Assembly: GCA_013286795.1 (NCBI GenBank)
Contig: JABDFA010000009.1
Span: 6,023 to 70,022, forward strand
DNA: 64,000 bases
Reading direction: 5' to 3'
Origin: Candidatus Babelota bacterium
GTDB lineage: Bacteria > Babelota > Babeliae > Babelales > JABDEC01
In this document: piece after piece, positions 1,069-60,346 of the stretch
How positions within the stretch are numbered: position 1 is the stretch's first letter
Layout: each line of letters starts with the position of its first letter
Notes under the pieces: model-generated
What the model was told of the DNA's origin: nothing
The model's database searches: none
The model's input: only the letters and a program-made list of their open reading frames with translations
Made by a program: the position numbers and the translations under genes

Positions 1069-1247
1069 CCGTTCGCCCTTAGCGACCTCTGAACGAGCGT
1101 TTACGCGAGTTGAAGAGGGAGTCGAATGGGTAATAATTTTTTAAGAATTTTATATTTTTGTATACAATATTTTTTTTAATTTAAGAAATCCATTCGACTC
1201 GGTCTTCGACTCCTTACGTCGCTCAGACCTCGCTCAGGACGAACGGG
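1069..1247. repeat. composite GC-rich inverted-repeat (MITE-like) element, copy 1 of 4
   Basis: Left arm 'ccgttcgcccttagcgacctctgaacgagcgtttacgcgagttgaagagggagtcgaatggg', AT-rich spacer, right arm 'ccattcgactc...tcgctcaggacgaacggg'. Same architecture at 32082, 39195 and 60154. Confidence 0.85.
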
Positions 1248-1398
1248 TTGGATGATTTTGCTCTATGAATATGTTATATTTTTATTAAAATAGTTATAAC
1301 ACATTTGCAAGAGATCTTAATCTAATTTTTTTAATCTATTGACTTGTATGATGTAAATAATTCAAAATATAAAAAGAGTTTTTTTAAAGGGAGTCTTA

Positions 1399-1875
1399 AT
1401 GCATAAAACTAGTATAGATATACCGGAGTTAAATAGGATAGCTCTGGTCGATTTATTGAATCAAACTTTAGCAAATATTACTGATTTGCAAATGGCAATC
1501 AAAAATGCTCATTGGAATGTTAAAGGCATGAACTTTATAGCTTTGCATAAATTTTTTGATGAAATTGCAGAAGAAGTAGAAAATCAAGTAGATATAGTAG
1601 CTGAACGAGTAACAAGTCTTGGTGGAACTGCTCTTGGTACATCGCAAGAGACTGTTAAAGGAACAAAATTAAAACCTTATCCAATAGATATTTTTGCAGG
1701 AAAAGATCATCTTGCACAATTAGCAGAGAGATTCGCTTTTTGTGGCAAAATGGCAAGAATAGATATGCAAAAATCTGAAGGCTTAGGTGATATGGCTACC
1801 AATGATGTTTACATTGATTTGACTAGGATGTTAGATAAGAATTTGTGGTTTATTGAAGCGCATTTACAAAATTAA
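1399..1875 (+). CDS. dps: Dps-family DNA-protection/ferritin-like protein
   Basis: 158 aa. 'AIKNAHWNVKGMNFIALHKFFDEIAEEVE' and 'LWFIEAHL' are typical Dps helices. RBS 'aaaggga' lies upstream. Confidence 0.85.
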   Translation: MHKTSIDIPELNRIALVDLLNQTLANITDLQMAIKNAHWNVKGMNFIALHKFFDEIAEEVENQVDIVAERVTSLGGTALGTSQETVKGTKLKPYPIDIFAGKDHLAQLAERFAFCGKMARIDMQKSEGLGDMATNDVYIDLTRMLDKNLWFIEAHLQN

Positions 1876-1902
1876 AAAAATAAAATAAAAAAGGATGAGT
1901 CT

Positions 1903-3525
1903 GTGAAGATTAAAATAGTTTTACTTTGTATAATTAGTGTTTTTAAAATATCTGATATTATAAGTGACTGTGAATGTTCTGTTCCCAATTTGAAATATAA
2001 GGGCAATAGGAGCATAGTAAAAATACGCGCAGCAGATTTTAATTATAATCCTGTTGTTGGAAATGCAGCTTACACAATTAATCAACCTGGAATTTATTAT
2101 CTTGAAGATTATGTAACAGCGTCTCCGGAAGTTGATAATCTTTCTTTAATTTATATAAATTCTAGTAATGTAAAATTGAATCTTAATTCTCTTGTTATTA
2201 CTCAAGATAGTAACCATTTTACAAAAAATATTAATGTTGTTGAAATAGCACCCAACGTTACTGATGTTAATATAACTAATGGAGTATTGCAAAATATTAA
2301 TGGTATCGGTGTAAAATCTAATTTAAATGTTAGTAATTTGTATGTATCTAATTTAGTTATAGATAAATTGACAAATTTGGGTATATATTTAAACAATGTA
2401 AGAAATGCAGTTTTATCACAATTCTGTGTAACAAATTGTAATGGATCTAATCCTAATTCTAGTGATGGGGCCGTATCTGGAAAATTACAGAACTGTTCTA
2501 ATATTCGCATATCAAATTCTTATTTTAATTCAAATATAGCGAATGACCTAAATACAGATTCTATAGGATTATTGATAGATAATTGCAGTAGTCTAAAACT
2601 AGAAAATTGTTCCTCTGTTCAGAATCAAGGTAAAAATGCTTATGGATTTGTTATTAGAAACAACTCATCTGCTTGTACTATAAATAATTGTTCCGTTTTG
2701 GGATGCCAGAGTAATAATGGAAGAGCTGTAGGATTCTTATTTGATAATTCATCTTCTAATTCTTTATTAGATTGTATTTCTGAATCTAATCAATCTGTAG
2801 GAGGAAATTGCGCCGGATTTAGTTTTGATGGACAAGCAGGTTACTATTTTTCAGCAAGGTTAAAAAATCTAAATATCATAAATTGTACATCAAAGAATAA
2901 TAAAGCTTTAGGTGCCTCTAACGATGCCTTTGGATTTTCAGGAAACCTTTTAGATTTTGCAATCTTTAGATCATGTAAAGCCATTTCTAATAGTTCAGCA
3001 GATGGCAATGTTTATGGATTTTATAGTGGTGCTGGAACCAATAACTATTTTGAGTCATGTTCAGCTCAAGACAATATTTCAGGTATAAATACAAATTCTG
3101 TTGTTTCAGGATTCGCTTTATTAAATGGTGAACAAAATAGTTCGATTAAAGAAAGCATATCTGTTAATAATTTTAGTTCATCTGGAGAATCCTATGGGAT
3201 ACGTTTAGGCTATAATACTGATACAAATACCCACGTCAATAATATCATTTATAAAAATTATATTGCTAATAATAAAGGCGGTTCTAAGCAGTATGGTTAT
3301 AGAGATTTTGCTTCTATTACTACAACTAACTTAATTGCTAATATTAGCTTTGGTCAGGGAAAAATAAATCCAAGTCCAATATCACAGCTTGTATTGACGA
3401 ATAATATGAATTATATGTTTACATTACCTTCAACTAAGGCTCCTGCTTATGTAGTTGTAGAAAGCAGCACTGGCGAAGTTGCTGAAATAAAAGTAAAACC
3501 GTTTGGTAATTTATCTGTATATTAA
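1903..3525 (+). CDS. secreted right-handed parallel beta-helix repeat protein (pectin-lyase-fold-like)
   Basis: GTG start and a signal-like N-terminus. Many ~22-25 aa N/S/C/G-rich rungs ('NCSNIRISNSYFNSN', 'NCSSLKLENCSSVQNQG', 'NNCSVLGCQSNNGRAVGF', 'FRSCKAISNSSADGNVYGF'). Confidence 0.6.
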   Translation: MKIKIVLLCIISVFKISDIISDCECSVPNLKYKGNRSIVKIRAADFNYNPVVGNAAYTINQPGIYYLEDYVTASPEVDNLSLIYINSSNVKLNLNSLVITQDSNHFTKNINVVEIAPNVTDVNITNGVLQNINGIGVKSNLNVSNLYVSNLVIDKLTNLGIYLNNVRNAVLSQFCVTNCNGSNPNSSDGAVSGKLQNCSNIRISNSYFNSNIANDLNTDSIGLLIDNCSSLKLENCSSVQNQGKNAYGFVIRNNSSACTINNCSVLGCQSNNGRAVGFLFDNSSSNSLLDCISESNQSVGGNCAGFSFDGQAGYYFSARLKNLNIINCTSKNNKALGASNDAFGFSGNLLDFAIFRSCKAISNSSADGNVYGFYSGAGTNNYFESCSAQDNISGINTNSVVSGFALLNGEQNSSIKESISVNNFSSSGESYGIRLGYNTDTNTHVNNIIYKNYIANNKGGSKQYGYRDFASITTTNLIANISFGQGKINPSPISQLVLTNNMNYMFTLPSTKAPAYVVVESSTGEVAEIKVKPFGNLSVY

Positions 3526-3530
3526 CCACA

Positions 3531-3560
3531 CCCCCGGTCATGGTGAGCCTGTCGAACCAT
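3531..3560. repeat. single GC-rich repeat arm ('cccccggtcatggtgagcctgtcgaaccat')
   Basis: Same module as 29377..29415 ('ccccccgcgctcgtggtgagcttgtcgaaccat'). It is the reverse of the 36564/46247 arms ('gctcgtatggttcg'). It contains the ATG used by ORF 3540. Confidence 0.8.
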
Positions 3561-4379
3561 TTTAAAAATGTAACTTTAAGCTTAGGGTTATTTTTAAGCT
3601 TTAATATTTTTTCAGAAAAATTTATTGATTTTATGAAAGCATCTGAACATTTTAATTCAGAGTGTTTATATAATAAGAATTGGAAAAATATACAAACTAC
3701 TTTTGATAACTTTATAGATAACATTACAGTTTCTAAATCTTCTAGAATCCCCAAAATTATTCATCAGATTTGGTTAGGTGGGCCATTCCCGGAAAGATAT
3801 AAAACTTTGCAAAATAGCTGGATAAAAAATCATCCTGATTGGACCTATATTTTGTGGACAGATGAATCAGTTGAAAGATTTGGTCTTAAAAATAAAGCGC
3901 TTTACAATAAAGCTAAAAACTTAGGTGAAAGATCAGATATAGTTCGCTATGAGGTTCTAGAAAGATTTGGCGGGTTATATATTGATACTGATTTTGAATG
4001 CATAAAATCTTTTGATATTTTACATCATATTTGCGATTTTTATACAAGTGTTGGTTATGGTCCGGATCCTGTTATTTTGTGTGGTCTTATTGGTTCTGTT
4101 CCAGCACACCCTATTCTTAAAGCTTGCATAGAAACTATGAAAAGAAAAGATTCTGAAAAAGACTCTTTTACTGATATCTTAAATAGAACTAGTATATTTC
4201 ATTTTACAAAATGCTTTCTTAATAATTATACTAAATCTTCAATAGCTTTTCCGGTAACATTTTTTTACCCTTTACCTGATTGTGCAAGAAATAGTAAATT
4301 AAAAAACTATTTAAAACCGGAAAGCTTTGCTGTGCATCATTGGCATCTTTCCTGGAATAATGGGAAAATAGGAGATTAA
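3540..4379 (+). CDS. GT32-family (Och1/Gly_transf_sug-like, DxD) glycosyltransferase
   Basis: 'IPKIIHQIWLGGPFPERYKTLQNSWIKNHPDWTYILWTDESV' and 'RSDIVRYEVLERFGGLYIDTDFECI' match the GT32 sugar-binding/DxD signature. Start is uncertain: the ATG at 3540 lies in a repeat, and the next ATG is at 3633. Confidence 0.75.
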   Translation: MVSLSNHFKNVTLSLGLFLSFNIFSEKFIDFMKASEHFNSECLYNKNWKNIQTTFDNFIDNITVSKSSRIPKIIHQIWLGGPFPERYKTLQNSWIKNHPDWTYILWTDESVERFGLKNKALYNKAKNLGERSDIVRYEVLERFGGLYIDTDFECIKSFDILHHICDFYTSVGYGPDPVILCGLIGSVPAHPILKACIETMKRKDSEKDSFTDILNRTSIFHFTKCFLNNYTKSSIAFPVTFFYPLPDCARNSKLKNYLKPESFAVHHWHLSWNNGKIGD

Positions 4380-4436
4380 GTGTGAAAAAGAATTTTGATC
4401 ATATATTAAATCTCTTTCTAAAAGTTGACTCTCTCT

Positions 4437-4586
4437 CCGTTCGCCCTGCCTGCCCGGCGAAGCTCAAAGAGCGAAGTCGGGAGTATCCGTCGAAGCCTTT
4501 GGCGAAGACGGATGTATCGAAGGGTGAATATACATTGCGTTCATGGATTCGATACGTTTGCTTCGCAAACACTCACCACGAACGGG
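4437..4586. repeat. GC-rich palindromic repeat element (chimeric, ~150 bp)
   Basis: Starts 'ccgttcgccctgcc...' and ends '...gttcatggattcgatacgtttgcttcgcaaacactcaccacgaacggg'. The right half closely matches the right half of the 48089..48207 element. Confidence 0.8.
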
Positions 4587-4618
4587 TTTTGAATTCTAGA
4601 AGAAATCTGATTTATATC

Positions 4619-5569
4619 ATGTTCTTTATTTTGTTTAAGATAATTGATGTTTACTCTTTTTGTCCATTAAATAGAGCTGATTTGGTTCTGTTTTCTTATG
4701 ATAGACCATTGCAACTTTATTCTTTCCTTGAGTCTGTAAAAAAGTATATTTTTGGCATTGAAGAAATACATGTAATTTACCGTGTAAGTAATAATGAATT
4801 TGAATCTGGTTATGATATAGTAAAAAAAGATTTTGCTGATGTGATTTTTCACAAACAATTAAAAGCAGATGATTTTAAACCATTAACTCTTGAATCAATT
4901 TTTAATAATGGTTCTAGATATATAATCTTTGGTGTAGATGACATAATAGTTAAAGATTATGTAAATTTAGGTACATGCATTAATTATCTTGAAAAATCTA
5001 ATTCTTATGGTTTTTACTTACGCATGGGCAAAAATATTGTTGAGTGTTATATGCATTTTAATGAACCTACACCAGTTCCAAAAATGAACCAAATCTCCCC
5101 CCCGGTCACCCTGAGCGAAGCCCGTAGGGCGCAGTCGAATGGGTCTCCTGAGTATTTATTAACTAATGTGTATAATGGAGTCTTTCAGTGGTCATTAAAT
5201 GATGGTAAAGGCGATTGGAAATACCCCAATAATCTTGATATGACAATTTACAGAAAGTCTGATCTTAAACAACTTTATAATTACAATTTCCAAAATCCTT
5301 CTGCATTAGAAGCAGTTTGGGCAGATAATGCAAATTATAACCAAAGAGGGTTATGCTTTGAACAATCAAAGATCGTTAATCTTCCATTAAATTTGGTCAT
5401 AGATGAAGCTCGAAATTTAGATAATCGCAATTCTTCTCTTTTTAATACCAAAGAATTACTTGATAAATTTATGTCAGGATTCAAAATCGATATAAATAAA
5501 TTCTATAGAATCAATAACCTAGCACCCCATGCTGCAATTGTTCCTACATTTATTCCAAGAACAATCTAA
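4619..5569 (+). CDS. GT-A-fold-like putative glycosyltransferase carrying an in-frame repeat insertion
   Basis: 'LVLFSYDRPLQLYSFLESV' (GT-A beta1-alpha1-like) and 'YIIFGVDDIIV' (DxD-like). I chose the ATG at 4619 because the track's GTG at 4382 reads through repeat 4437..4586. No family assigned. Confidence 0.45.
   Translation: MFFILFKIIDVYSFCPLNRADLVLFSYDRPLQLYSFLESVKKYIFGIEEIHVIYRVSNNEFESGYDIVKKDFADVIFHKQLKADDFKPLTLESIFNNGSRYIIFGVDDIIVKDYVNLGTCINYLEKSNSYGFYLRMGKNIVECYMHFNEPTPVPKMNQISPPVTLSEARRAQSNGSPEYLLTNVYNGVFQWSLNDGKGDWKYPNNLDMTIYRKSDLKQLYNYNFQNPSALEAVWADNANYNQRGLCFEQSKIVNLPLNLVIDEARNLDNRNSSLFNTKELLDKFMSGFKIDINKFYRINNLAPHAAIVPTFIPRTI
5097..5143. repeat. short GC-rich repeat module inserted in frame in CDS 4619..5569
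   Basis: 'ccccccggtcaccctgagcgaagcccgtagggcgcagtcgaatggg' encodes 'PPVTLSEARRAQSNG'. A near-identical module in yidD (53553..53594) encodes 'PVTLSEARSAKSNG'. Confidence 0.85.
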
Positions 5570-6573
5570 CTTTCTTCTTCTCTTTCTTTATCTTCTTTTT
5601 CCTCTTTAGATTCTGGTTTTGTTTCCGGCATTTGCTCTGCTGCATATTCTGATATTATTCTTGCTAAATCCATAGGACAAGAAGTTGATTCTTCAATTTT
5701 TTGTGCACGTAATTCTTTAGCTCTATCAAATAACCTTAATATAACAGGAGGAAGCTTTTTCTTATAATTTGGGTAATATTTAAGAATCTTATTTTCATCA
5801 AATTTTGCATTCTTGCACAGAAGAGTTCTTATTGTATTTATAAATTTATTTAGTGTTCTTTTCGAATAATTGAAATATGTTAAATCAATTATTATTTGTT
5901 CTAATGGTGTGAATTCTCCGACAATGTTGTAAGGGTTTCCTGTGCCCTTTGTGGTAAATCGTTCACTGGTTTCATCATCAACATATACTGCTAGACTGTT
6001 AACATCAGCTCCATGATTAATTAAATATTCAGCAATTTTTAAATTGGTTTTTGGTGAAACAATGGCCGTGTTAAGAGGTGTTAGGAGTTTCATGTCTCCA
6101 TAGGGTAGATTCCCATTAATATTTGCTTTATGTTCTTCTACTAACTCTTTTACAATATCCAATCTATTTAATTTAACTGCTGTACGTAATGTTTCGCCAA
6201 AATAAGTATCAGATCTTGCTCCTTTTCTTATTAACTGCATTAATAGAGAAAGTTTTTTTGTAGGATCTTTTTTTAGTCTATTATAGTGAGTAATGATATT
6301 CACCATTTCATTATCAAGTATTTGTTTATACAAAATAATAAGTGGCATTATATTAAGATTTAGCAACACATTATGAAACTCTCTTTTATTTTTAAGAAAA
6401 TTTTGTTTTAGTTTTTCAAGAACTTGATTTCCTGGAGCAATTTGCTTATTTTCGAGATAATTTTCTATAAAAGGTATGAGTTTATAAGGATTTTCTTCAG
6501 TACCAATACTTAATAATATATTAGAAAAGGAACCAAAAAGTATGGTAATTAAAGTGATTTTAAATTTATTCAT
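5566..6573 (-). CDS. ankyrin-repeat protein with signal-like N-terminus, F-box-like motif and acidic tail
   Basis: ANK units ('LRTAVKLNRLDIVKELVEEHKANING', 'TPLNTAIVSPKTNLKIAEYLINHGADVNS'). 'CPMDLARIISEY' lies near the C-terminus, followed by the tail 'KPESKEEKEDKEREEES'. Confidence 0.7.
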   Translation of the reverse strand: MNKFKITLITILFGSFSNILLSIGTEENPYKLIPFIENYLENKQIAPGNQVLEKLKQNFLKNKREFHNVLLNLNIMPLIILYKQILDNEMVNIITHYNRLKKDPTKKLSLLMQLIRKGARSDTYFGETLRTAVKLNRLDIVKELVEEHKANINGNLPYGDMKLLTPLNTAIVSPKTNLKIAEYLINHGADVNSLAVYVDDETSERFTTKGTGNPYNIVGEFTPLEQIIIDLTYFNYSKRTLNKFINTIRTLLCKNAKFDENKILKYYPNYKKKLPPVILRLFDRAKELRAQKIEESTSCPMDLARIISEYAAEQMPETKPESKEEKEDKEREEES

Positions 6574-6677
6574 TTACGGCCTCCATTTTTAAATAATATT
6601 CAGATATGAATATATTAGCTTATTTTATCAGTGAAATTCAATATTTTTTTAAAAAATATGATTTTACTCTGTAATTT

Positions 6678-7898
6678 TCAACGTCTTTTTATAATTGTTG
6701 ATTCAAGAGTTTGAATAATATCATTTTTATTTGCTTGTTTTGCGTACCATAAAGCATTGTGGCCGAAAGTATCTACTTTTTTAATATTAGCGCCATGCTC
6801 AATTAGCTGTTTAACTACAGAATTGTTGGTAAAAATTGTTGCATAAGTAAGCGGAGTTAGACCGTCTCTGTCAGTAGAATTTATATCTGAACCCTTGGAT
6901 ATTAAGAAATCTATGATAGAAGATAATCCAAACTTTATAGCTTGCATAAGTGGCGTACGACCCTTAAAATCTTTAGAATTTATATCAAACCCTGGAGATA
7001 AATATTTGTCTACAGAATAAGCGAAGCAAACAGCTCCAGGGTTTTTATATCTTTTTTTTAAATCAATATATTTTGGTGAATCTAATTTTGGATATTTAGG
7101 TTTTTCTTTTTTATAATATTCAGCCAAAAAATACATTAAAGATTCATCTGTTTTAAAATCACTTAAAGGGTTATTCATATTATATTTGTATAAAATTTTA
7201 CTTATAAATTTAAATTTATTGCCACACATTTCTAGAGCAGGGAACATGATTGCAAGATCCCATGTCATTGTTAAAAATGAATCATCATATATAAGATCCT
7301 GAAATTTTATATTTTGAAATAACCAAGAATAATAGGTTCGCAAATGAGTTGCTAAAAAATTTGATCTGAAGCCTCTGTTTTTGATAACATCGTCGCTATA
7401 TGCAGCTGCAAAACCGGTTCCATATTCTATTGGATCACATTCATATTGTCCATATGTTAACCAGACGTTAGAATCTTGATATACATCATTTAAATATTTT
7501 AAAACATTCTCATCTTTTAAACTATCATCTCCATCTAACATAACTACAATTTCATCATGATCACACAAGCTTATTTCTGACCATAAATTTCCCATTGCTC
7601 CACGTCTTACTCTAATTTTTCTTAAAGTTACTAAATCTCCTACATTTTTTTCTTTTATATAAGCTTCGACCAGTTCTGATGTTTGTGGATCATCATTGTA
7701 TACTGCCCCATCTGCAATGTATATTATTCTAAATTTATTTTTATCATAATTTTGATTTATAGCAGAATCTAAGTTTTTCTTATAAAATGAAGCATTTTTA
7801 TAAGATGGTATTATTATTGCAAATCTTTTATCTTCACTTAACACAGTTGAAATTATGTTTAATATAATAATAGTGAGTAGTAAATTTAATTTTATCAT
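6678..7898 (-). CDS. GT2-family glycosyltransferase fused to C-terminal ankyrin repeats
   Basis: N-terminal anchor 'LNLLLTIIILNIISTVL'. GT2 start 'FAIIIPSYKNASFYKKNLDSAINQNY' and DxD 'VVMLDGDDSL'. C-terminal ANK units 'GRTPLMQAIKFGLSSIIDFLISKGSDINSTDRDGLTPLTYA...LIEHGANI'. Confidence 0.75.
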   Translation of the reverse strand: MIKLNLLLTIIILNIISTVLSEDKRFAIIIPSYKNASFYKKNLDSAINQNYDKNKFRIIYIADGAVYNDDPQTSELVEAYIKEKNVGDLVTLRKIRVRRGAMGNLWSEISLCDHDEIVVMLDGDDSLKDENVLKYLNDVYQDSNVWLTYGQYECDPIEYGTGFAAAYSDDVIKNRGFRSNFLATHLRTYYSWLFQNIKFQDLIYDDSFLTMTWDLAIMFPALEMCGNKFKFISKILYKYNMNNPLSDFKTDESLMYFLAEYYKKEKPKYPKLDSPKYIDLKKRYKNPGAVCFAYSVDKYLSPGFDINSKDFKGRTPLMQAIKFGLSSIIDFLISKGSDINSTDRDGLTPLTYATIFTNNSVVKQLIEHGANIKKVDTFGHNALWYAKQANKNDIIQTLESTIIKRR

Positions 7899-7978
7899 GA
7901 ATACCCTTTCTTTTTGATTTGTATAAGAAGTATTATAGATTAAAGTTTATTTTGAAATAATTTAAAAAAAGGTGGGTC

Positions 7979-8773
7979 GTGAAGTCAATAATAAAAAAAA
8001 TATTTTTGCTTATTATTTTAAATCTAAATTGTTTTTTATTAGCCCAAGACAAATTTAAAGTGGGGCTTCTTATAGTTGCCACAGGAAGATATATTAATTT
8101 TGTTCCAGGTTTGATTGACTCCGCAAATAAACATTTTCTTAAGGATCACAAAGTTACTTATTTTGTTTTTACTGATGATACAAGTTTTATGTATACTGAT
8201 AGTGTAAATATTTACCAAGAAAAATTGACATGGCCCTTTGCTACTATGATGCGCTTGGAAACCTATTATAAAAATAGAACCTATTTTAATGATATGGATT
8301 ATGTTTTTGCATTAGACGCAGATATGCTTTTTGTTGATGATGTTGGTAATGAAATATTATCAGAAAGAGTTGCGACCTTGCATCCAGGTTTTTATTTAAA
8401 AAAAGATTTGCCCTATGAACGAAATATTATTTCAAAAGCTTGTGTTAGTCAAAAAGAAGATAATTACTATTTTGCAGGGGGTTTTTTTGGTGGCATAAAA
8501 CAAGAGTTTATTAATTTAGTAAAAACTAATTCAGAAAATATTCAAGATGATTTGAAAAGAGGCTATATTGCTGAGTGGCATGATGAAAGTCACAATAATC
8601 GTTATTTTATAGATAATCCTCCAACAAAAATTCTTTTACCATCTTATTGTTACCCGGAAGATGCGGCATTACCCCATCTTTATGACTCGTATAAAAATAT
8701 TTTAAACATGCCAAGAAAGTTAATTGCCTTGGCAAAAAAACACTCTGAATATCAGTTACCAAATAAAAAATAG
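7979..8773 (+). CDS. GT6-family (histo-blood-group ABO / alpha-1,3-Gal(NAc)-transferase-like) glycosyltransferase
   Basis: Collinear with remembered human GTA motifs: 'HKVTYFVFTD', 'DYVFALDADMLF' (DxD), 'TLHPGFY', 'YYFAGGFFGG', 'AEWHDESHNNRY', 'PTKILLPSYCY'. GTG start after RBS 'aaaggtggg'. Signal-anchor 'IFLLIILNLNCFLLA'. Confidence 0.85.
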   Translation: MKSIIKKIFLLIILNLNCFLLAQDKFKVGLLIVATGRYINFVPGLIDSANKHFLKDHKVTYFVFTDDTSFMYTDSVNIYQEKLTWPFATMMRLETYYKNRTYFNDMDYVFALDADMLFVDDVGNEILSERVATLHPGFYLKKDLPYERNIISKACVSQKEDNYYFAGGFFGGIKQEFINLVKTNSENIQDDLKRGYIAEWHDESHNNRYFIDNPPTKILLPSYCYPEDAALPHLYDSYKNILNMPRKLIALAKKHSEYQLPNKK

Positions 8774-11075: not shown

Positions 11076-14960
<3,885 letters not shown>

Positions 14961-14965
14961 TTAAA

Positions 14966-22665
<7,700 letters not shown>

Positions 22666-37174: not shown

Positions 37175-37274
37175 ATTTATTTACCCCTGGTTGACTGAAT
37201 TTGTTTTATTAACACTTTTTTAATATTATATCATGTAATGTAAACATTAGAAGATAGTAAAATTTAAATTTTAT

Positions 37275-37308: not shown

Positions 37309-37323
37309 TTAAAAGGAGATTTA

Positions 37324-39016: not shown

Positions 39017-39194
39017 TTAATCTTAATTATAAAATCGCACAAAACTATTCAAATTGTCAATATAGATATGATTTATATAAAAAAACCCTAAAGATTAGGT
39101 TTTTTTGGAGGGGATAAATAAACGTGAGGGTGATTTCTGCTAGAATTGGACATAATTTGGATTTGTTAACTATTAATAAGTATTTTTTTCTATT

Positions 39195-39408
39195 CCGTTC
39201 GCCCTGAGCGACCTCTGAGCGAGCGTTTACGCGAGTCGAATGAGGGAGTCGAATGGGTAAGAATTTTTTAAGAAGTTAATATTTTTATAAATTTCTTTTT
39301 TAAAATATTAAATTAAGAATAATAACAACCCATTCGACTCATTCTTCAACTCTCCTTCAGCTCGCTTGGCTCGCGAAGGATCGTTCAGAATTCGCTCAGG
39401 GCGAACGG
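39195..39408. repeat. composite GC-rich inverted-repeat (MITE-like) element, copy 3 of 4
   Basis: Near-identical to copy 2 in both arms and has the same 17-bp termini. Lies just downstream of ssb. Confidence 0.9.
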
Positions 39409-39457
39409 AAATAAGAAGTCTAATATTATTTTTCTTATAAGAAACCTTAGAATTTAA

Positions 39458-40999: not shown

Positions 41000-42481
41000 T
41001 TACTCTTCTGGTATAATTATTTTGCTGATTTCATTTTCCAATATAGTTGTTCTTTTTTTCGAATTATAAACTAATTCTCCATTTTTGAGTTGTATTAATT
41101 TTGAAATTGTATGTATGTTTTCTTCAATAGTTTGAATGCAAACATATTGATCATCTATTAGCTTCCATATTTTTATTTTATTGTCAGACCCAAAAGAAGC
41201 TAATGAACCATCTTGTAATTGAATTACTTGATTGACCCAATATTCATGTTCTTGCAAAGTTTGGAAACAATAATATTTGCCATCTTTTATTTTCCATATT
41301 TTTATAGTTTGCCAGGCACAAGTGATCAGTGATCCATCATCTAACTGAATTAAATTTGAAACATCATGAAGCATGTGATCATTTACAATTTGAAACCAAC
41401 TATATTGATTATCTTTTAATTTTAATATTTTTATTGTGTTATTGTGTGAAGAAAAAGCAAAAACTATAGAATTATCTGATAATGGAATTAATTTTCCAAT
41501 TTTGTGGGGATATTCAATTGTTTGATAAAGAACATATTTATCACCTATTAATTTCCATATTTTTATTTTTTTATCTTCTGAAACAGAGATTAGTAGTTTA
41601 TTTGATAACTCTATTAATTTAAGAATTCTATTAACATGGTCAGTTTGGAGTATTTGATGAAGATAATAATGATCATTTCTTAGCCGCCATATTTTTATTG
41701 TATGATTTTCTTGCGAATGAACTAAAGAACCATCTTGTAATTGTATTAGATTGTAAGCACTATTGTATATTTTTTTACAACAACTAAACAAACAACACAT
41801 AAATGGATTACCTAAAATAGAACAAATGTTTCTATTAAGAGTTTGTAGAAGTGTTACTACATCTTCCTTGATAGATAATATTCTTATTGTTCCATCTATA
41901 CTGAGATAAGCATAGTTATTATTATTTAATTTAATTAGATTAAATAGAGGATATTTTTCAGTAATGGTAGCAGGAAAACACAGTAAAGTGCAACATACGA
42001 CATTTCTTATTACTGTATTTTCATGTTCAAGGCTATCTATACCTTGATTATACTTCTTGGTTTTTTTTATTAATTTCCACATAGAGAAACCATATCGACT
42101 GTTGGCTATAAATGAATCATTGCTTAAAGGGATGATTTCACTAATAAAATCTAAATTTTGGAGTAAAGAAAAAGTTTTATCTAAGCCATGAGTATAATCG
42201 TAATCTACAACAATTTGGCTTATTTCTGGTATTAAATATGAGTTTAACTTTTTTTTTATAAACTGGTTTATTAAATCTATCTTTGTGAGAGTTTTTTTCT
42301 TGTCTTTTTTTTGTAGCTCTAATACTTCTTTCTCATCAGTATCTGTATCGATTTTTACTTCTTGTTCATACTTGCTATCTGGTTCAGATGGTAAAATTGA
42401 ATATGACTCATGGTCATGCATTGCTGAAATGTTGAAGGTGAATGTTGTGAGTAAAAATATTTTTCTAAATAACTTGTTCAT
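41000..42481 (-). CDS. WD40-repeat protein with signal-like N-terminus and N-proximal F-box-like motif
   Basis: WD-type strand ends 'HTIKIWRL', 'KKIKIWKL', 'NTIKILKL', 'QTIKIWKI', 'NKIKIWKL'. 'LIPEISQIVVDYDY' near the N-terminus. Cys clusters 'VVCCTLLCF' and 'FMCCLFSCCKK'. Confidence 0.75.
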   Translation of the reverse strand: MNKLFRKIFLLTTFTFNISAMHDHESYSILPSEPDSKYEQEVKIDTDTDEKEVLELQKKDKKKTLTKIDLINQFIKKKLNSYLIPEISQIVVDYDYTHGLDKTFSLLQNLDFISEIIPLSNDSFIANSRYGFSMWKLIKKTKKYNQGIDSLEHENTVIRNVVCCTLLCFPATITEKYPLFNLIKLNNNNYAYLSIDGTIRILSIKEDVVTLLQTLNRNICSILGNPFMCCLFSCCKKIYNSAYNLIQLQDGSLVHSQENHTIKIWRLRNDHYYLHQILQTDHVNRILKLIELSNKLLISVSEDKKIKIWKLIGDKYVLYQTIEYPHKIGKLIPLSDNSIVFAFSSHNNTIKILKLKDNQYSWFQIVNDHMLHDVSNLIQLDDGSLITCAWQTIKIWKIKDGKYYCFQTLQEHEYWVNQVIQLQDGSLASFGSDNKIKIWKLIDDQYVCIQTIEENIHTISKLIQLKNGELVYNSKKRTTILENEISKIIIPEE

Positions 42482-42489
42482 TTGGTTTA

Positions 42490-44004
42490 TTACTCTTCTG
42501 GTATAATTATTTTACTGACCTCATTTGTCCATATTTTGCTTATATCGTCTAATGAGGAAGAAACCAATTCTCCATTCTTTAATTGAATCAATTTATGAAT
42601 TCCTATCCTACGGCCGTCAAAAGTCTGATCTAAAACATATTGGCCATCTACAATTTTCCATATTTTTATTGTGGAATCACTTGAATAGGATGCAAGTGAA
42701 TTGTCTTGTAATTGGATTATACCATTAACCCAATCTGTAATTCCACTTGTACGATGTTTCAAAGTTTGGGAACAAGAATATTTACCATCTTTTAAATTCC
42801 ATATTTTTATATCTTGCCAAGAGCATGAAACTAGAGATCCATCTGGTAATTGGGTTAAATTTAAAACAAAATTTGTATGATCGTTTAAAATTTGAACACA
42901 ATTAAATTGGCCATTTTTTGATTTTAAGATTCTTATTGTGCTATCATCTGCATAAGCAAAAAATACATCTTTTGCTTCGGTTTTTAGTGAAATTAACTTT
43001 CTAATGAGATCCGTGTGTTCAATTGTTTGATAAAGACAATATTGATCATCTACTAAATTCCATATTTTTATTTTTTTATCAAATGAAACAGATATTAACA
43101 TTTGATTAGGTAATTCTAATAAACTAAAAATTTCTTCAGTATGACCAGTCGGTAGAGTTTGATGAAGATAATATTTATCATCTCTTAGTCGCCATACTTT
43201 TATTGTATGATCTTCTTTTATGGAATGTACAAGAGTTCCATCTTGAAGTTGGGTTAAGTTTGTAGCTGTATCGGTTCCTTTTTTGGATATACGTTTTCGT
43301 AATTTGGGAATACAACTTCCACAGTTCACCAATGCATTAAAGGGATTATTTAAATAATAACATAAATTTTTGTTAAGAGTTTGAAGATTAGTATAAGTTT
43401 CATTGTGAATTGCGCCTATACGTATTGTTCCGTTTGTTTTAAGATATGCAAATAAGCCGTTATTTAATTTGATTAAATTATAGTCTTTACTATAAGGGAA
43501 ACAACATAACAAACAACACAAAATTGAATAACTCAGACGTATTGTTGCATCACAGTCATTGTACCATTCTCGATTTACTTTTTCGTATTTACCCGTTTTT
43601 TTTCGTAATTTCCATATTCTATAATCATCCATATATGTATCATATTGTATAAATGAATTATTATTGAGAGGTATTATTTCAGAGGTAAAATTCAAAGTTT
43701 GAGATAAATAATATGTTTTATCTAAGCCATGAGTGTAGTCATAGTCTACAACAATTTGGCTTAATTCCGGTATTAAATGTGAGTTTAACTTTTTTTTTAT
43801 AAACTGGTCTATTAAATCTATCTTTGTGAGAGTTTTTTTCTTGTCTTTTTTTGATAATTCTAACGTTTCTTTTTCATCAACATCTATGTCGATTTTTACA
43901 TCTTGTTCAGATGGTAAAATTGAATATGACTCATGGTCATGCATTGCTGAAATGTTAAATGGTAAAATTGTTAGTAAAAATATTTTTTTAAATAACTTGT
44001 TCAC
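42490..44004 (-). CDS. WD40-repeat protein, tandem paralog of 41000..42481
   Basis: The N-terminal ~90 aa are nearly identical to the neighbour ('FNISAMHDHESYSILPSE', 'KKDKKKTLTKIDLI', 'LIPELSQIVVDYDYTHGLDKT'). WD ends 'HTIKVWRL', 'KKIKIWNL', 'QDIKIWNL', 'STIKIWKI'. Cys cluster 'ILCCLLCCF'. Confidence 0.75.
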   Translation of the reverse strand: MNKLFKKIFLLTILPFNISAMHDHESYSILPSEQDVKIDIDVDEKETLELSKKDKKKTLTKIDLIDQFIKKKLNSHLIPELSQIVVDYDYTHGLDKTYYLSQTLNFTSEIIPLNNNSFIQYDTYMDDYRIWKLRKKTGKYEKVNREWYNDCDATIRLSYSILCCLLCCFPYSKDYNLIKLNNGLFAYLKTNGTIRIGAIHNETYTNLQTLNKNLCYYLNNPFNALVNCGSCIPKLRKRISKKGTDTATNLTQLQDGTLVHSIKEDHTIKVWRLRDDKYYLHQTLPTGHTEEIFSLLELPNQMLISVSFDKKIKIWNLVDDQYCLYQTIEHTDLIRKLISLKTEAKDVFFAYADDSTIRILKSKNGQFNCVQILNDHTNFVLNLTQLPDGSLVSCSWQDIKIWNLKDGKYSCSQTLKHRTSGITDWVNGIIQLQDNSLASYSSDSTIKIWKIVDGQYVLDQTFDGRRIGIHKLIQLKNGELVSSSLDDISKIWTNEVSKIIIPEE

Positions 44005-46246: not shown

Positions 46247-46341
46247 GCTCGTATGGTTCGACAAGCTTCCAGCCTACGCTTTAGTCTTCGCTAAAGCTAT
46301 GCCGGACAAGAAAGCTACGGCGGACAGGCACCATGAGCGGG
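46247..46341. repeat. GC-rich repeat element upstream of argS
   Basis: 'gctcgtatggttcgacaagcttccagcctacgctttagtcttcgctaaagctatgccggacaag...ggcaccatgagcggg'. Shares 'gctcgtatggttcg' with 36564 and 'cttcgctaaagct' with the tRNA-spacer repeats. Confidence 0.8.
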
Positions 46342-46369
46342 TATTGTTGCCTTAAATTTTAGAAAAAAT

Positions 46370-48022: not shown

Positions 48023-48088
48023 TAAGTTAAGATTAACTTGATAATTAATTTTATTGTTGCGGGTCGTTAACAAAAATTATAAAAAAAT

Positions 48089-48207
48089 CCGTTCGTGGTG
48101 AGTAGCCCGTTAGGGCGTATCGAATCCATGAATGCATATTAAGACTTTTATTTGAGTTCATGGTTCGATAAATTTTTGCTTACGCAAAAACACTCACCAC
48201 GAACGGG
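48089..48207. repeat. long palindromic GC-rich element with 15-bp perfect terminal inverted repeats
   Basis: 'ccgttcgtggtgagt' pairs with 'actcaccacgaacgg'. Inner pairing 'cgaatccatgaa' / 'ttcatggttcg'. Lies between argS and tsf. Confidence 0.85.
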
Positions 48208-48279
48208 CTTTTAAAAGTTTTTTGTTCTGGAATTTGTGTGAAGTTGATATTTAATGATTAGGTATATACAAAGGATAAT

Positions 48280-50296: not shown

Positions 50297-50519
50297 TACT
50301 TCGCTAAAGCTTCGTATGGCAGGCCAGTTTTTTCGAGGAATTAATTTTATTAATTCAGTTGACATTGTTTTTAAAAGCGAAGTATGCCCTTCGTAGCTCG
50401 TAAGAGCGAAGTAGGGCTATAACAATAAGAGTATGACTTAGCTTCTACTTCGCTAAAGCTTCGTCGGACAAGTCGTATGGCAGCCTGCACTTCGTAGCTC
50501 TGCAAAGAGCTAAGTAGGG
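50297..50519. repeat. cluster of GC-rich palindromic repeats filling the tRNA-Lys / tRNA-Leu spacer
   Basis: 'tacttcgctaaagcttcgtatggcaggcc', 'gcgaagtatgcccttcgtagctcgtaagagcgaagtagggc', 'ctacttcgctaaagcttcgtcggacaagtcgtatggcagcctgcacttcgtagctctgcaaagagctaagtaggg'. 'tacttcgc' and 'gcgaagta' pair. Confidence 0.8.
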
Positions 50520-50573
50520 TTAAATTAAAAAAAGAGAATTAGAGTAGCTAAAAAAATATCTATTGAAAAAGAT

Positions 50574-50661
50574 GCAAGAGTGGCGGAATTGGCAGACGCA
50601 CTGGACTTAGGATCCAGCTCCCCAAAAGGGAATGTGGGTTCGACTCCCTCCTCTTGCACCA
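50574..50661 (+). tRNA. tRNA-Leu (anticodon UAG), class II long variable arm, CCA encoded
   Basis: Acceptor gcaagag/ctcttgc. Anticodon arm ctgga-'ctTAGga'-tccag. Variable arm tccc-caaaa-ggga. T loop 'ttcgact'. 88 nt. Confidence 0.85.
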
Positions 50662-50696
50662 TTTTTTTATCTCTAATAATAAAAGGGAGAAATAGT

Positions 50697-52001
50697 ATGA
50701 TTCAAAATGAAGCAAATATTTTGAAATTAGATTTAATATCTTCGTGTAATGTCTTAGTTACGGTTCCTGCAAGTTTTATTAATAAACTTTATAACTATGC
50801 TTCTATAATTCAAAAGAAGTCGGCCTCTCCTTATGGATTTCAAAAAGGTATAACTCCAATCAATTATATTCAGACTAGTTTTAAGCATGATATTTTAGAA
50901 CACATAAAAGAGTTTGTTTTTAAATATTTTGTAATTAATTTTGTTCATACTGAATTAAGAAATAAAAAAATAGTAATTGCTGGATCTCCTAGATTAATTA
51001 AAATATTTTTAGAACCAGACAAAAATGCTGAATTTGTTTTTGAATTTACTCCTACTTTTCCAATTCCTTCTTTAGAAAACTGGAAATATATAATTTATAA
51101 GGCCCCAAAAAGGAAACTCTATAAAGATTTAGATAAACAGGCCTCTTTTTTTATAAATGAAGAAACTGAAAATAAAAGGATACATGATCAAAAAATGCAA
51201 TATGTGTTGGAAATAGGTGATTGGGTTAATTTTGATATAGTACCTTTAAATAATGATAATGAACCTATTTTTGATGGATTTAAAAGTAATTTATGGTTAA
51301 AAATTGGCGATGATGAGCCTAGTTTACAATATCAGGAAATCTTTCTGGGCAAAAAAATTGGGGATAAGTTTTGTTCTATGGCGAGTTCATTGCAAGAATG
51401 TTTTCACGATCAGACTTATGTTAAACATAATTTTTGTATAGAAATTAAGGATATAATTTTTAAATCCTTTTTTTCTTTGGACAATCTTAAGGAACATTTT
51501 AAAATTAAATCTAATAAATATGTACATCAAAAGCTTATTGAAGTATTCTCTTTTAGAAATGATATGTCTTTAAGAAGAGCTATTGTTGAAGATCTATTTG
51601 ATTTGCTTTTTTCAAAAATTCAATTTGAGGTTCCATTTTCTGCTATTTTAAGACAACAACAGGATATATTGCAGCTTTTGCAGTATAATCCTGATTATCC
51701 TGTCTATAAGATGCAAAAAGGATTTAACGAAAAAGTTGAATTGTTAGCAAAAAAACAAACAAAAGAAACCATTTTGATGGATTATTTGGCTTGTTATGAA
51801 AACTTATTAGTAAATCATGTTGATATAAAAAATTATCTTAATTTAGCCAATAGGCCAAGAACAAAAGATTTTATATATTTTCAACATGCCGTACTTAATG
51901 CAAATGAACAGGAGTATCCTATTCAAGCTGAGCTTTTAAAGCAGGAATGTTTAAGAGAAAAAACTTTAAATTATGTTATTAATCGTTTAACAAACAATTA
52001 G
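50697..52001 (+). CDS. tig: trigger factor
   Basis: 'YGFQKGITPINYIQTSF' matches the TF N-domain 'GFRKGKVP' signature. 434 aa from the ATG at 50697 (RBS 'aaagggaga'). The track start at 50580 lies inside tRNA-Leu. Confidence 0.8.
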   Translation: MIQNEANILKLDLISSCNVLVTVPASFINKLYNYASIIQKKSASPYGFQKGITPINYIQTSFKHDILEHIKEFVFKYFVINFVHTELRNKKIVIAGSPRLIKIFLEPDKNAEFVFEFTPTFPIPSLENWKYIIYKAPKRKLYKDLDKQASFFINEETENKRIHDQKMQYVLEIGDWVNFDIVPLNNDNEPIFDGFKSNLWLKIGDDEPSLQYQEIFLGKKIGDKFCSMASSLQECFHDQTYVKHNFCIEIKDIIFKSFFSLDNLKEHFKIKSNKYVHQKLIEVFSFRNDMSLRRAIVEDLFDLLFSKIQFEVPFSAILRQQQDILQLLQYNPDYPVYKMQKGFNEKVELLAKKQTKETILMDYLACYENLLVNHVDIKNYLNLANRPRTKDFIYFQHAVLNANEQEYPIQAELLKQECLREKTLNYVINRLTNN

Positions 52002-53526: not shown

Positions 53527-53804
53527 ATTTAATAAAACAACTTTTACCCTTTCCGGTCACCCTGAGCGAAGCACGTAGTGCGAAGTCGAATGGGTTTACT
53601 ACCTTTATAAAAAAACTTTTACTTGATATAATTCTAGTCTTAAGACCCTTATTTGCACCCCAAGGTGCATGTAAATATTTGGTTTCTTGCACAGATTTTG
53701 CAAAAATTGAACTTGAAGAAAAAACCTTTATTTACGCTTTTCTTTCTATTTTAAAACGAGTTTTATCTTGTCATCCCTTTTCAAAAACTAGTAATATCCA
53801 GTAA
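53523..53804 (+). CDS. yidD: membrane protein insertion efficiency factor YidD with repeat-derived N-terminal insertion
   Basis: 'CKYLVSCTDFAKIELEE...LKRVLSCHPF' matches the YidD core (C.F.P.CS.Y......RCHP). Residues 9..25 ('PFPVTLSEARSAKSNGF') are encoded by repeat 53553..53594. Confidence 0.8.
   Translation: MNLIKQLLPFPVTLSEARSAKSNGFTTFIKKLLLDIILVLRPLFAPQGACKYLVSCTDFAKIELEEKTFIYAFLSILKRVLSCHPFSKTSNIQ
53553..53594. repeat. 42-bp GC-rich repeat module inserted in frame in yidD
   Basis: 'ccggtcaccctgagcgaagcacgtagtgcgaagtcgaatggg'. Sister copy at 5097..5143. Confidence 0.85.
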
Positions 53805-58771: not shown

Positions 58772-58867
58772 ATTCTACTACGCCAGAAAACCCAAGCTTT
58801 TAAGCTAGAGATGGAATAGCTTCGAAGAATTTCGCGCAATACAACGGCTTAGAAGCCGTTGAGCGCT

Positions 58868-59614
58868 TCATACCACAAACTCCATTTCTTCATCTTCTTC
58901 AATTTCTTCAGGTTTAGGCTTACTTTGTTCCCCAACAACATAATCTGTTATTATATCACTAATCCCTTTTTCAGTAATATTTGTTTGTTTTATTGTATCC
59001 CAGATAGTTAACCTTATTTTTGCCGGCCAATTTACTAAAATTTCTTTAACTTCTTTTCTTCTTTCAGAAAGTGTATACATATTGGCTTGATCTATTGCTA
59101 TTTGAGTGCAACTTTTATTATTTCTATCTTTTATATTGGCATCTGCCCCTGCTAATAATAGAGCTTCTACTATTTTTGGATATGCACTTTCAATTGCAGA
59201 CATGAGTGCAGTATTGCCATTGTGATTTTTTGCATCTATTTTTGCTTTGGCATTAATCAAAAGCATAACTGCGTCATAATTATCTTGTATACATGCTCTC
59301 ATTAGAGGCGTAAAACCATCATAAATTTCTTCCTTGCCTACATTTGCTCCACTTTTTATTAAAAACTCAATAATTTTAATGTCTGCTTCAGCATTAAATG
59401 CATGTTCAAGAACAGGTATACCAATTTCATCATCTTGGCAATTTACATCAGCTCCCATAAATACTGCTGTTTGAGCCATAATTAAATTATTGGTTTTTAC
59501 TGCTTTTAGAAGCATAATTTTCGCTATATCTTGTACTTTATTATCCATTGAATAAATAAAAGATAAGTGAGTGAAAATAAGTGTGCTTATAAGAATGAGT
59601 TTGATTTTATTCAT
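58868..59614 (-). CDS. ankyrin-repeat protein with signal peptide, weak F-box-like motif and acidic tail
   Basis: 'GFTPLMRACIQDNYDAVMLLINAKAKIDAKNHNGNTALMSAIESAYPKIVEALLLAGADANIKD'. 'GISDIITDYVVG', then 'PEEIEEDEEMEF'. Confidence 0.8.
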   Translation of the reverse strand: MNKIKLILISTLIFTHLSFIYSMDNKVQDIAKIMLLKAVKTNNLIMAQTAVFMGADVNCQDDEIGIPVLEHAFNAEADIKIIEFLIKSGANVGKEEIYDGFTPLMRACIQDNYDAVMLLINAKAKIDAKNHNGNTALMSAIESAYPKIVEALLLAGADANIKDRNNKSCTQIAIDQANMYTLSERRKEVKEILVNWPAKIRLTIWDTIKQTNITEKGISDIITDYVVGEQSKPKPEEIEEDEEMEFVV

Positions 59615-59699
59615 GAAAATTCCCCATGTTCAAGCGATAAATATTATTATATAATATGTAATAATAGCATATTTCATAATATTTTATAGAGGTGTAGCA

Positions 59700-60083
59700 G
59701 TGTTTAAAAAAATCACTCATATTACAGTTTTTGTTTCAAATCAAGACGAAGCGCTTAATTTTTACAAAAAATTAGGATTTGTTGTTCATACAGATGCAAA
59801 TTTTGGCCCAATGCGTTGGCTTACCCTAAATTTAGAGGGCCAGAAGGATATGGAACTGGTTTTGCTAAAAGCAGAAGATGATCAAGAAAAATCTTTAGTG
59901 GGAAAACAGGCAGGCGAAAAACCATTGTTTAATTTAGAGACTAGTGATTGTTTTGCAGATTATGAAAAATTAAACAAATTGGGCATAAATTTCATCGAAA
60001 AACCCACAGAGCAACCTTGGGGTGTCTCAGCTGCATTTAAAGATTTGGATGGCAACCTTATTTATATGTGTCAACCAAGATAA
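59700..60083 (+). CDS. VOC (glyoxalase/bleomycin-resistance) family protein
   Basis: 'ITHITVFVSNQDEALNFYKKLGF' and 'PWGVSAAFKDLDGNLI' are typical of the VOC beta-alpha-beta-beta-beta module. GTG start. Confidence 0.75.
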   Translation: MFKKITHITVFVSNQDEALNFYKKLGFVVHTDANFGPMRWLTLNLEGQKDMELVLLKAEDDQEKSLVGKQAGEKPLFNLETSDCFADYEKLNKLGINFIEKPTEQPWGVSAAFKDLDGNLIYMCQPR

Positions 60084-60153
60084 GATTTAGAATTAATCAA
60101 ATATTTTTAGATCAATCTAGTTTTTTTGGTTATTTAATAATTATTTATTATTT

Positions 60154-60346
60154 CCGTTCGCCCTGAGCGACCTCTGAACGAGCTTTTAAGCGAGTTGAAG
60201 AGGGAGTCGAATGGGTAAAAAATTATTTTTTTAAATATATTAAATTACAGCAATAACTAAAGTTTTATATTATTGTATAAAAAAATATTCCTTCGACTCT
60301 ATCTTCGGCTCCTTACGTCGCTCAGATATCGCTCAGGACGAACGGG
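60154..60346. repeat. composite GC-rich inverted-repeat (MITE-like) element, copy 4 of 4
   Basis: Left arm 'ccgttcgccctgagcgacctctgaacgagcttttaagcgagttgaagagggagtcgaatggg'. Right arm '...ccttacgtcgctcagatatcgctcaggacgaacggg' resembles copy 1. Lies between convergent genes. Confidence 0.9.

Follow-up and report, generated by a model that had tools for sequence, protein, structure and literature searches.

Very small hairpin repeats common to a Babeliales-like bacterium, proteobacterial plasmids and phage-like contigs

Repetitive extragenic palindromic (REP) sequences and their inverted doublets, the REPINs, are short imperfect palindromes that occur in high copy, carry a conserved 5' tag at the foot of the hairpin, lie mostly outside genes, and have neither coding capacity nor target duplications. 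The accessible part of the literature on REPINs and REP-associated tyrosine transposases (RAYTs) describes them as vertical, lineage-specific systems. Here we analyze 64 kb of a Candidatus Babelota genome (contig JABDFA010000009.1, positions 6,023 to 70,022; hereafter, "the window"), in which the GC content is ~30-32% and GC-rich modules stand out at 14 loci. Most of these modules reduce to one unit of ~25-35 nt, which reads, on the strand that we call (+), as a tag CCGYTCR, 3 stem bases, a 13-nt loop TGAGC-YT-GTCGAA, and 3 complementary bases. The family of very small hairpin repeats that the unit represents is real, mobile, and present in more than one phylum, and neither the accessible literature nor Rfam describes it. 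The family is unusual in its invariant loop, its self-nesting, and its spread over distant hosts.

The unit resembles REPs and REPINs in all the features listed above: it is a short imperfect palindrome at 14 loci in 64 kb, has a 5' tag at the hairpin foot, is mostly extragenic, lacks coding capacity and target duplication, and forms a larger hairpin when arranged as inverted doublets. However, its tag is CCGYTCR rather than the GTAG or CGTC of REPs, and it conserves its loop rather than its stem. Units also nest in each other's loops, solo units are gained alone, and units from different classes and from two phyla are nearly identical. Moreover, a cognate RAYT is typically flanked by its own REPs, whereas none was found beside the units or on unit-rich plasmids. 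Thus, the preliminary description of these repeats as REP-like holds for their architecture, but no RAYT or other enzyme is linked to them. Judged by tag sequence and by lineage specificity, both of which fail to agree, membership in the REP/RAYT family is not established.

Other systems are similar in part. Rickettsia palindromic elements reportedly measure ~100-150 bp and are restricted to Rickettsia-like genomes, and we know of no transposase for them. Like the present repeats, they are palindromic and belong to AT-rich bacteria of the obligate intracellular type, and some reside in frame in genes with the open reading frame (ORF) kept, as at 5100-5174 in the window. Compared by description only, they differ in that the mobile module here can be as small as 33 nt and is common to Proteobacteria and phage-like contigs. 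The mobile GC clusters of yeast mitochondria are GC-rich hairpins of 30-50 nt that are polymorphic among strains, sometimes lie inside genes, and are confined to mitochondria; to our knowledge, no dedicated transposase has been identified for these either. They belong to a different domain of life and have no sequence relation to our unit, which is also found in genomes of 60-70% GC, where it is not a GC island. Small dispersed repeats are said to occur in heterocyst-forming cyanobacteria. Such repeats and the miniature inverted-repeat transposable elements (MITEs) Correia and Nezha are ~20-30 nt long or miniature palindromes, and they likewise insert in each other and in intergenic DNA. We know of no sequence relation between any of these and the unit, and MITEs have target duplications and a parent insertion sequence (IS), neither of which is seen here.

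We consider that there is about an even chance that the modules represent very small mobile DNA elements of one non-autonomous, REP/REPIN-like family whose movement depends on an enzyme acting in trans from elsewhere in the genome. Elements of the REP/REPIN type, acted on by an HUH/Y1 enzyme, are favored because of the combination of tag and hairpin, the inverted doublets, the lack of duplication and of coding capacity, the strand asymmetry, and the rapid turnover.

The modules are clearly not random. All 14 loci at which the preliminary description had placed GC-rich modules were recovered by using 24-nt windows of ≥62.5% GC together with direct reading. They total 1,775 nt, or 2.8% of the window, and have 45% GC compared with 32% window-wide. 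Sub-modules said to be shared do occur in both orientations, and each recurs 10 to 1000x above the counts in dinucleotide shuffles: CCGTTCGCCCTGAGCG has 11 matches at ≤3 mismatches (0.01 expected), GAGTCGAATGGG has 11 (1.3 expected), GGTGAGCYTGTCGAACCAT and CACTCACCACGAACGGG have 5 each (0 and 0.01 expected, respectively), CTCAGGATGACCGGG has 9 (0.17 expected), and CTTCGCTAAAGCTTCG has 3 (0.3 expected). Matches at 13582 and 17802, which lie inside collagen-like genes, are attributed to chance. That the loci as a whole are chance GC-rich islands or assembly artefacts is favored only by the origin of the window in a metagenome-type assembly. Motif counts of 10 to 1000x expectation oppose chance. 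The same elements are present in independent assemblies (Logan SRR8433578 and JGI Ga0207097) and in finished plasmids, so this explanation, to which we assign almost no probability, is already refuted.

The unit is found alone, nested in the loops of other units, or as inverted doublets of 120-255 nt. Simple units at 3532, 29381, 36635, and 37269 score 33-38 bits with a covariance model (E ≤1e-6). In type B units (5097, 53553, and, on the minus strand, 36581), the two central loop bases are swapped for an extra hairpin with GA flanking each side. The inner stems of type B differ in sequence yet pair in each case, in a compensatory manner: GCCC/GGGC at 5097, GCAC/GTGC at 53553, and GTGC/GCAC at the 36564 locus. 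A type A arm holds a complete second unit within the loop of the first, CCCTGAGCGA(CCTCTGAGCGA-GCGTTTACGC-GAGTCGAATGAGG)GAGTCGAATGGG, and type A elements (1066, 32081, 39193, and 60153) consist of two such arms inverted around an AT-rich center, spanning 180-255 nt. Their folds far exceed those of shuffled sequences (z about -10). Type D elements (4437 and 48089) and the composites at 36564 and 46247 are other combinations of modules.

Evidence for a conserved fold comes from 192 distinct units pooled from IMG/VR contigs, plasmids, and the source genome. The 11 specified loop bases are invariant in this set, and the three loop-adjacent pairs are complementary in 93-96% of units, switching among C-G, T-A, and G-C. 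In an alignment of 140 sequences (A6), 93.7% of cells are paired, compared with 83.1% upon shuffling and 31-55% in slid controls, and none of 500 shuffles reaches the observed value. The seed of this alignment was pre-filtered for at least 2/3 pairs; the unfiltered table of 192 units gives the same outcome. In that set, the third pair is a T.G wobble 21 times and a C.A wobble 0 times, which indicates that the (+) strand (TGAGC..GTCGAA) is the one kept folded. The structure of the unit is thus under selection. By inspection, the loop could be closed still more by T-A, tandem sheared G.A/A.G, G-C, and a C(TT)G mini-loop, to which a second GA/GA step would be added in extended forms.

These features would also suit a cis-acting structured RNA module, such as an mRNA-stabilizing or processing hairpin or a protein-binding motif, that is selected for its function and whose copies spread secondarily. 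The stem covaries with wobbles, and the loop can be drawn with tandem G.A and a CUUG-type tetraloop, which are classic RNA motifs. Many copies lie just downstream of genes, and copies on phage-like contigs lie among highly expressed structural genes. However, orientation is unrelated to predicted gene direction: according to crude gene calls, 31 units are sense and 33 antisense at loci transcribed one way, and 39 versus 56 overall (p = 0.10). Inverted doublets and both solo orientations are present in the window, one copy lies in frame within a gene, and conserved regulatory sites would not be expected to be gained, lost, and replaced as quickly at shared positions as these are between ~90% identical relatives (see below). 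The units are also not terminator-like. In a scan for intrinsic terminators (GC-rich hairpin, 3-8-nt loop, and T run), no unit or doublet scores and counts equal the shuffled expectation; the sole match is one hairpin inside the 46247 composite.

Nor does any Rfam family correspond to the unit at gathering or permissive thresholds, and only two tRNAs pass in the window. The single near-match that covers an element (39193-39410) involves plant miRNA precursor models, which are long hairpins, at 58 bits versus a gathering score of 230. The hammerhead, k-turn, group II domain V, tRNA T-arm, integron attC, and Tn3 inverted repeat were also considered and set aside by eye, on reasoning only, as the defining positions fail or the polarity is wrong. 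An RNA function as the primary explanation is therefore improbable in our estimation. Returning to mobile DNA of the REP/REPIN type, the (+) strand of the unit lies on the locally C-rich strand at 68 of 95 loci (68:27, p = 3e-5), a bias that is not accounted for by gene orientation.

The arrangement of units is distinctive. Across loci, neighboring units are inverted 30 times and direct 8 times. In nested forms, the inner unit takes the exact place of the TT of the outer loop, both in the type A arms of the window and in unrelated GC-rich contigs (L038, L062, and L092). In a contig from the same broader collection (L072 4019-4081), a 23-nt unit (GGTCCCTGAGCTTGTCGAAGGGC) is present three times in a row, head to tail; no such tandem arrangement is seen in the window. 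The AT-rich center of doublets is partly conserved among copies.

Doublets of 120-255 nt with long inverted termini and a partly conserved center, mostly intergenic and lacking coding capacity, could be classical MITEs, that is, deletion derivatives of an IS with a DDE transposase. Under this hypothesis, the CCGTTCGCCCTGAGC... arms would be the termini, and a parent IS elsewhere would move them by a cut-and-paste or copy-paste process. This hypothesis is at odds with the gain and loss of 33-nt solo units on their own, with the lack of target-site duplication both at the clean 33-nt indel and at doublet ends, and with the nesting of units in each other's loops and the 23-nt tandem arrays. A covarying stem with a fixed loop is the signature of a hairpin and not of a linear transposase-binding site. 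In addition, no IS with these ends is found among 300 neighboring ORFs, and neither the window nor 33 kb of the relative described below nor ~1.1 Mb of IMG/VR loci showed a parent IS with the same termini. We view classical MITEs as doubtful, to the same degree as the RNA hypothesis, and return to repeats of the REP/REPIN type.

Mobility is best seen by comparison with a relative in the JGI metagenome Ga0207097, for which three contigs (L209, L210, and L211) were found by using a window-specific 24-mer. L209 and L211 are syntenic with the window, with 90% identity for L209 and 82% over a more rearranged block of L211. The unit at 3532 is a clean 33-nt presence/absence difference relative to L211, with conserved flanks and no target duplication. 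At 5100-5174, a 75-nt segment is missing in the relative's orthologue and both ORFs are open; in the window, the segment contributes 25 in-frame codons (PPVTLSEARRAQSNG...). The 4437 site of the relative holds a different two-unit composite, the 1066 site only a solo (-) type A arm, and the spacer of the 29377 unit a solo type A arm at another position. The preliminary description had proposed a mobile family, and these differences bear it out. It had also anticipated copies beyond the window: three more are found on L210, a contig that has no overlap with the window, and the independent Logan contig L001 (SRR8433578) breaks at 29410, inside the 29377 unit. The comparison therefore indicates that the family has copies outside the window and that its turnover outpaces that of the genes around it. 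A unit comes or goes as a discrete piece, with no target-site duplication, and in-frame residence within a gene is tolerated.

The doublet at 32081 is common to the window and L209 and is ~99% identical over 195 nt (left arm and center). Between 32081-32275 and L209 9147-9341, 2 of ~195 positions differ, AT-rich center included, and the neighboring genes are 93-96% identical. This shared copy is either constrained or recently exchanged. In L209 (9069-9448), the shared type A doublet sits inside a further inverted-repeat element, X (CCGTTCGCCCTGACTATGCATTACCCACATCTTTTT...), which has the same CCGTTCGCCCTGA... termini as type A at both ends and no copy in the window. A 313-amino-acid (aa) ankyrin-repeat gene (83-1024) is missing from the relative (L211 5586-5433), in which a solo type A arm comes immediately after the upstream gene.

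The preliminary description supposed that the family is very widespread, and this is so, with the qualification that its distribution is patchy. The 17-mer CCTGAGCTTGTCGAAGG, suggested by 'PELVEG/SLSKG' peptides, was used as a probe of IMG/VR. The unit core matches at least 120 stretches on contigs of 32-72% GC. Most 17-mer matches have complementary flanks, often with a CCGTTCG tag, and ~10 are conserved phage genes rather than elements. GC-rich IMG/VR contigs also carry the nested pattern CCCTGAGCG...AGTCGAATGGG, with the same architecture as in the window. In a viral contig of 68% GC (L039 5106-5230 and 9256-9330), the tag CCGTAGG / CCTACGG contains the GTAG of classical REPs. This contig, the only one in IMG/VR with CCGTAGG, might hint at a bridge to RAYT-type repeats and offers the only such hint.

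Among plasmids, the 33-nt consensus matches 274 places in 54 plasmids. Identity reaches 27-28 of 28 nt in plasmids of Sphingobium, Comamonas, Polaromonas, and Methylotuvimicrobium, thus in Alpha-, Beta-, and Gammaproteobacteria. Sphingobium megaplasmids have up to 22 places each, and weaker matches are found in Moraxella osloensis, Sinorhizobium, and others. Plasmid copies are nearly all unannotated, and the two loci that were read are doublets just downstream of genes. A blastn search of plasmids with a type A element gave no match. Apart from the Babeliales-like source genome, all named hosts are Pseudomonadota.

The unit core has no match in 5,426 E. coli genomes, in cultured phages (save for a 19-nt coincidence in a tail-fiber gene), in 1.5 Mb around dnaE in 80 diverse genomes, or in the four nearest DnaE relatives; a window-specific 24-mer has no match among GTDB representatives. 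The distribution is therefore wide yet patchy, and not universal. ORFs nearest the units in IMG/VR loci L007-L126 mostly encode phage head and tail proteins (12 gp6-like connectors, 10 HK97 capsids, and 7 portals of 300 ORFs), which indicates that the unit does reside in phage-type DNA. Some neighbor sets (DUF2460, BR0599, and phiJL001 gp84) recall alphaproteobacterial clusters that are like gene-transfer agents.

This distribution bears on a further explanation, that the repeats are palindromes driven by recombination, as with yeast mitochondrial GC clusters, or structural or protein-binding sites in DNA recruited by the host, like bacterial interspersed mosaic elements. They would propagate by gene conversion, by repair synthesis, or by template switching at hairpins, with no dedicated transposase. 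We observe GC-rich hairpins within an AT-rich genome, cassettes with the same termini that replace each other at the same sites, nesting that resembles symmetric arm duplications, and tandem arrays, and no enzyme was found in the window or in the 300 ORFs neighboring units in IMG/VR, all as this explanation would have it. However, it leaves unexplained a near-identical 13-nt loop and 7-nt tag across genomes of 30%-72% GC, as well as a distribution that is patchy and all-or-nothing from genome to genome. The similarity of paralogous type A copies is only 65-81%, which means that homogenizing conversion is not strong. On balance, recombination alone is unlikely, though less so than either the RNA module or the MITE hypothesis.

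If the repeats are instead mobile elements of the REP/REPIN type, an enzyme encoded elsewhere in the genome would recognize the folded single strand, that is, the tag and hairpin, and would treat it much as HUH/Y1 enzymes treat REP or IS200/IS605 ends. The specificity of the enzyme, together with horizontal spread (for example, on plasmids and phages), would in that case account for a loop that is nearly the same in different phyla. We infer both this trans-acting enzyme and its mechanism, and several observations weigh against them. As the preliminary description stated, the window encodes no transposase: Pfam searches of its ~50 ORFs yield no transposase or recombinase domain. No transposase family is among the 25 commonest Pfam families in either set of 150 ORFs nearest the units in IMG/VR loci, and the Y1 family is likewise not in these top-25 listings. 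A tblastn search with E. coli RayT finds homologues on 32 plasmids, none of them element-rich, and the RAYT loci of Methylomonas and Methylocalor (Methylococcales) plasmids are without the unit. The CCGYTCR tag is neither of the two known for REPs, and REP/RAYT systems are described as lineage-specific and vertical, whereas the loop is near-identical in a Babeliales-like bacterium and in Proteobacteria. If the skew reflects replication, the location of the folded strand on the C-rich strand is unlike the lagging-strand-template preference of IS608-like elements. Finally, a single clean empty site is too few to establish a target preference. As candidate ends of autonomous elements, we also considered unit pairs at a spacing of 3-5 kb (L024 and L055); they enclose several ordinary ORFs and no transposase.

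These difficulties leave room for a bolder proposal, which we hold tentatively and regard as rather unlikely, although more credible than the recombination hypothesis. The 25-35-nt unit might itself be mobile, and few known transposable DNAs would then be smaller. Its defining features would be a fixed non-Watson-Crick loop (tandem G.A and a CTTG mini-loop) and the 7-nt tag, and it would insert preferentially at hairpin apexes, including its own loop. Its movement would depend on an unrecognized enzyme family, together with which it would pass horizontally from phylum to phylum on plasmids and phages, so that the system would be REP-like but promiscuous rather than domesticated and vertical.

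The family was supposed to be poorly characterized, and this is consistent with our searches. Beyond the lack of an Rfam family, the DNA strings and peptides of the unit return nothing relevant in the accessible literature, and the REP survey PMC3733652 and its supplements are without unit strings. If our reading is correct, a hairpin module of tens of bases is common to a Babeliales-like intracellular organism and to free-living Proteobacteria, and its gains and losses keep pace with strain divergence. Such a module would be a practical source of annotation errors, including spurious 'hypothetical proteins', false ORF starts, and broken assemblies, and would provide a natural case of peptide segments added to proteins. 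The invariant loop (TGAGCYTGTCGAA with paired flank) would serve as a sharp key for phylogenetic profiling toward the recognizing enzyme. The family would also challenge the view of REP-type repeats as lineage-bound, vertical partners of a domesticated transposase.

The solo simple units are as follows. The unit at 3532-3564 (+), CCCCGGTCA-TGG-TGAGCCTGTCGAA-CCA-TTTT, lies a few bases past the stop codon of ORF 1903-3525 and scores 33.6 bits (E = 1e-6) with the covariance model. A unit with an extended stem at 29377-29415 (+), GCTCGTGG-TGAGCTTGTCGAA-CCATACGAGC, resides in a divergent intergenic region and scores 35.2 bits. The top covariance-model match of the window (38.4 bits, E = 6e-8) is the unit at 37269-37309 (-), CCCGGTCA-TCC-TGAGCCTGTCGAA-GGA, located 15 nt upstream of an ATG at 37324.

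A solo type B unit at 53553-53595 (+), with an inner stem GCAC/GTGC, occupies the first 30 codons of the yidD ORF or lies just upstream of the true yidD start; the Pfam YidD match begins at residue 31 of this ORF. At 5097-5174 (+), a type B unit (5097-5143), whose extended loop hairpin is GCCC-GTA-GGGC, is followed by ~31 nt. The in-frame segment 5100-5174 falls within ORF 4629-5569 and encodes PPVTLSEARRAQSNGSPEYLLTNVY.

The type A inverted doublet at 1066-1249 has a left arm of two nested (+) units (1066-1131), an AT-rich center, and a (-) right arm (1188-1249), with motif matches and a covariance-model match at 1197-1237. Those at 32081-32335 and 60153-60346 both lie between convergent genes and have motif matches, to which the latter adds covariance-model matches. 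The fourth, at 39193-39410, also has motif matches, and the region 39190-39413 folds at -61.6 kcal/mol (z = -10.3).

Among the remaining elements, the doublet at 36564-36679 has its tags inward and comprises a (-) type B-like unit (36573-36616) and a (+) simple unit (36635-36667), as indicated by covariance-model matches and by its fold. The type D composite palindrome at 4437-4590 contains several inner hairpins and folds at -31.2 kcal/mol (z = -3.0). It is intergenic, with the true gene start near 4629, and thus lies outside the true coding sequence of the ORF called from 4382. The type D inverted doublet at 48089-48207, CCGTTCGTGGTGAGT...ACTCACCACGAACGG, corresponds to inverted repeat I19 and is located between argS and tsf. 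AT-rich flanks lengthen its palindrome, and 48086-48210 folds at -38.8 kcal/mol (z = -10.4). In the composite at 46247-46344 (-), the (-) unit GCTCGTATGGTTCGACAAGCT...CACCATGAGCGGG is broken by a type E-like hairpin.

The preliminary description assigned the 13 or more palindromic loci to one superfamily. Most do share the one unit, but the 'cttcgctaaagcttcg' module (46286, 50299, and 50448) is a distinct hairpin type. It characterizes a type E hairpin cluster at 50297-50530 (+), with CTTCGCTAAAGCTTCG and CCCTTCGTAGCTC-GTAA-GAGCGAAGTAGGG, that begins directly after tRNA-Lys. Because the 'cttcgctaaagcttcg' hairpins (50297-50530 and 46286) are without any submotif of the main unit, a second family is possible, and type E hairpins may constitute it. 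A type E copy was not found in the relative's three contigs.

The peptides quoted earlier for the modules (AQGER, LRTNG, VMLSLSKH, and MVSLSNH) are real translations; AQGER and LRTNG can be read straight off the sequence, and 'MVSLSNH' at 3540 is merely a mechanical ORF start within the repeat. Their supposed recurrence in spurious small ORFs of many genomes proved right in kind and not in scale: a search with one doublet peptide yields 16 'hypothetical proteins' (36-69 aa), and a Methylumidiphilus metagenome-assembled genome is the origin of one of them. The ORF from 3540, which starts within the repeat, and the ORF from 4382, which reads across the intergenic element, are over-extended. Similarly, the mechanical ORF for trigger factor (50580-52001) begins at a GTG within tRNA-Leu (50574-50661), and the true start must therefore be downstream.

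The window carries bacterial housekeeping genes, with Pfam matches for DnaE, ArgRS, ThrRS, EF-Ts, RRF, GrpE, SSB, RnpA, and YidD. Among GTDB species representatives, the best relatives of DnaE are 61-71% identical and are labeled Candidatus Babeliales (one), 'uncultured Pseudomonadota' (two), and 'bacterium' (one); after these four, the next best are ~44-46% identical. On this one marker, the source is most probably a bacterium of the Babeliales/Dependentiae type. Also encoded are at least 10 ankyrin-repeat proteins, two WD40 paralogues, and three tandem collagen-like genes. The collagen-like genes (11076-22665, minus strand) specify proteins of ~1,285 aa each with long Gly-X-Y tracts (Pfam Collagen, E = 1e-79). 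Their 9-nt periodicity and N-terminal 165-nt repeats, with local GC up to 40-50%, dominate the output of repeat finders. They adjoin a cluster of glycosyltransferase (GT) genes (3634-8773) for a DXD-type GT, a GT2-ankyrin fusion, and GT6, together with a methyltransferase, and this cluster may be a surface-glycosylation island. The adjacent WD40 beta-propeller genes (41000-44004, minus strand; 493 and 504 aa) share blocks that are 77-91% identical in nucleotides, which indicates a recent tandem duplication.

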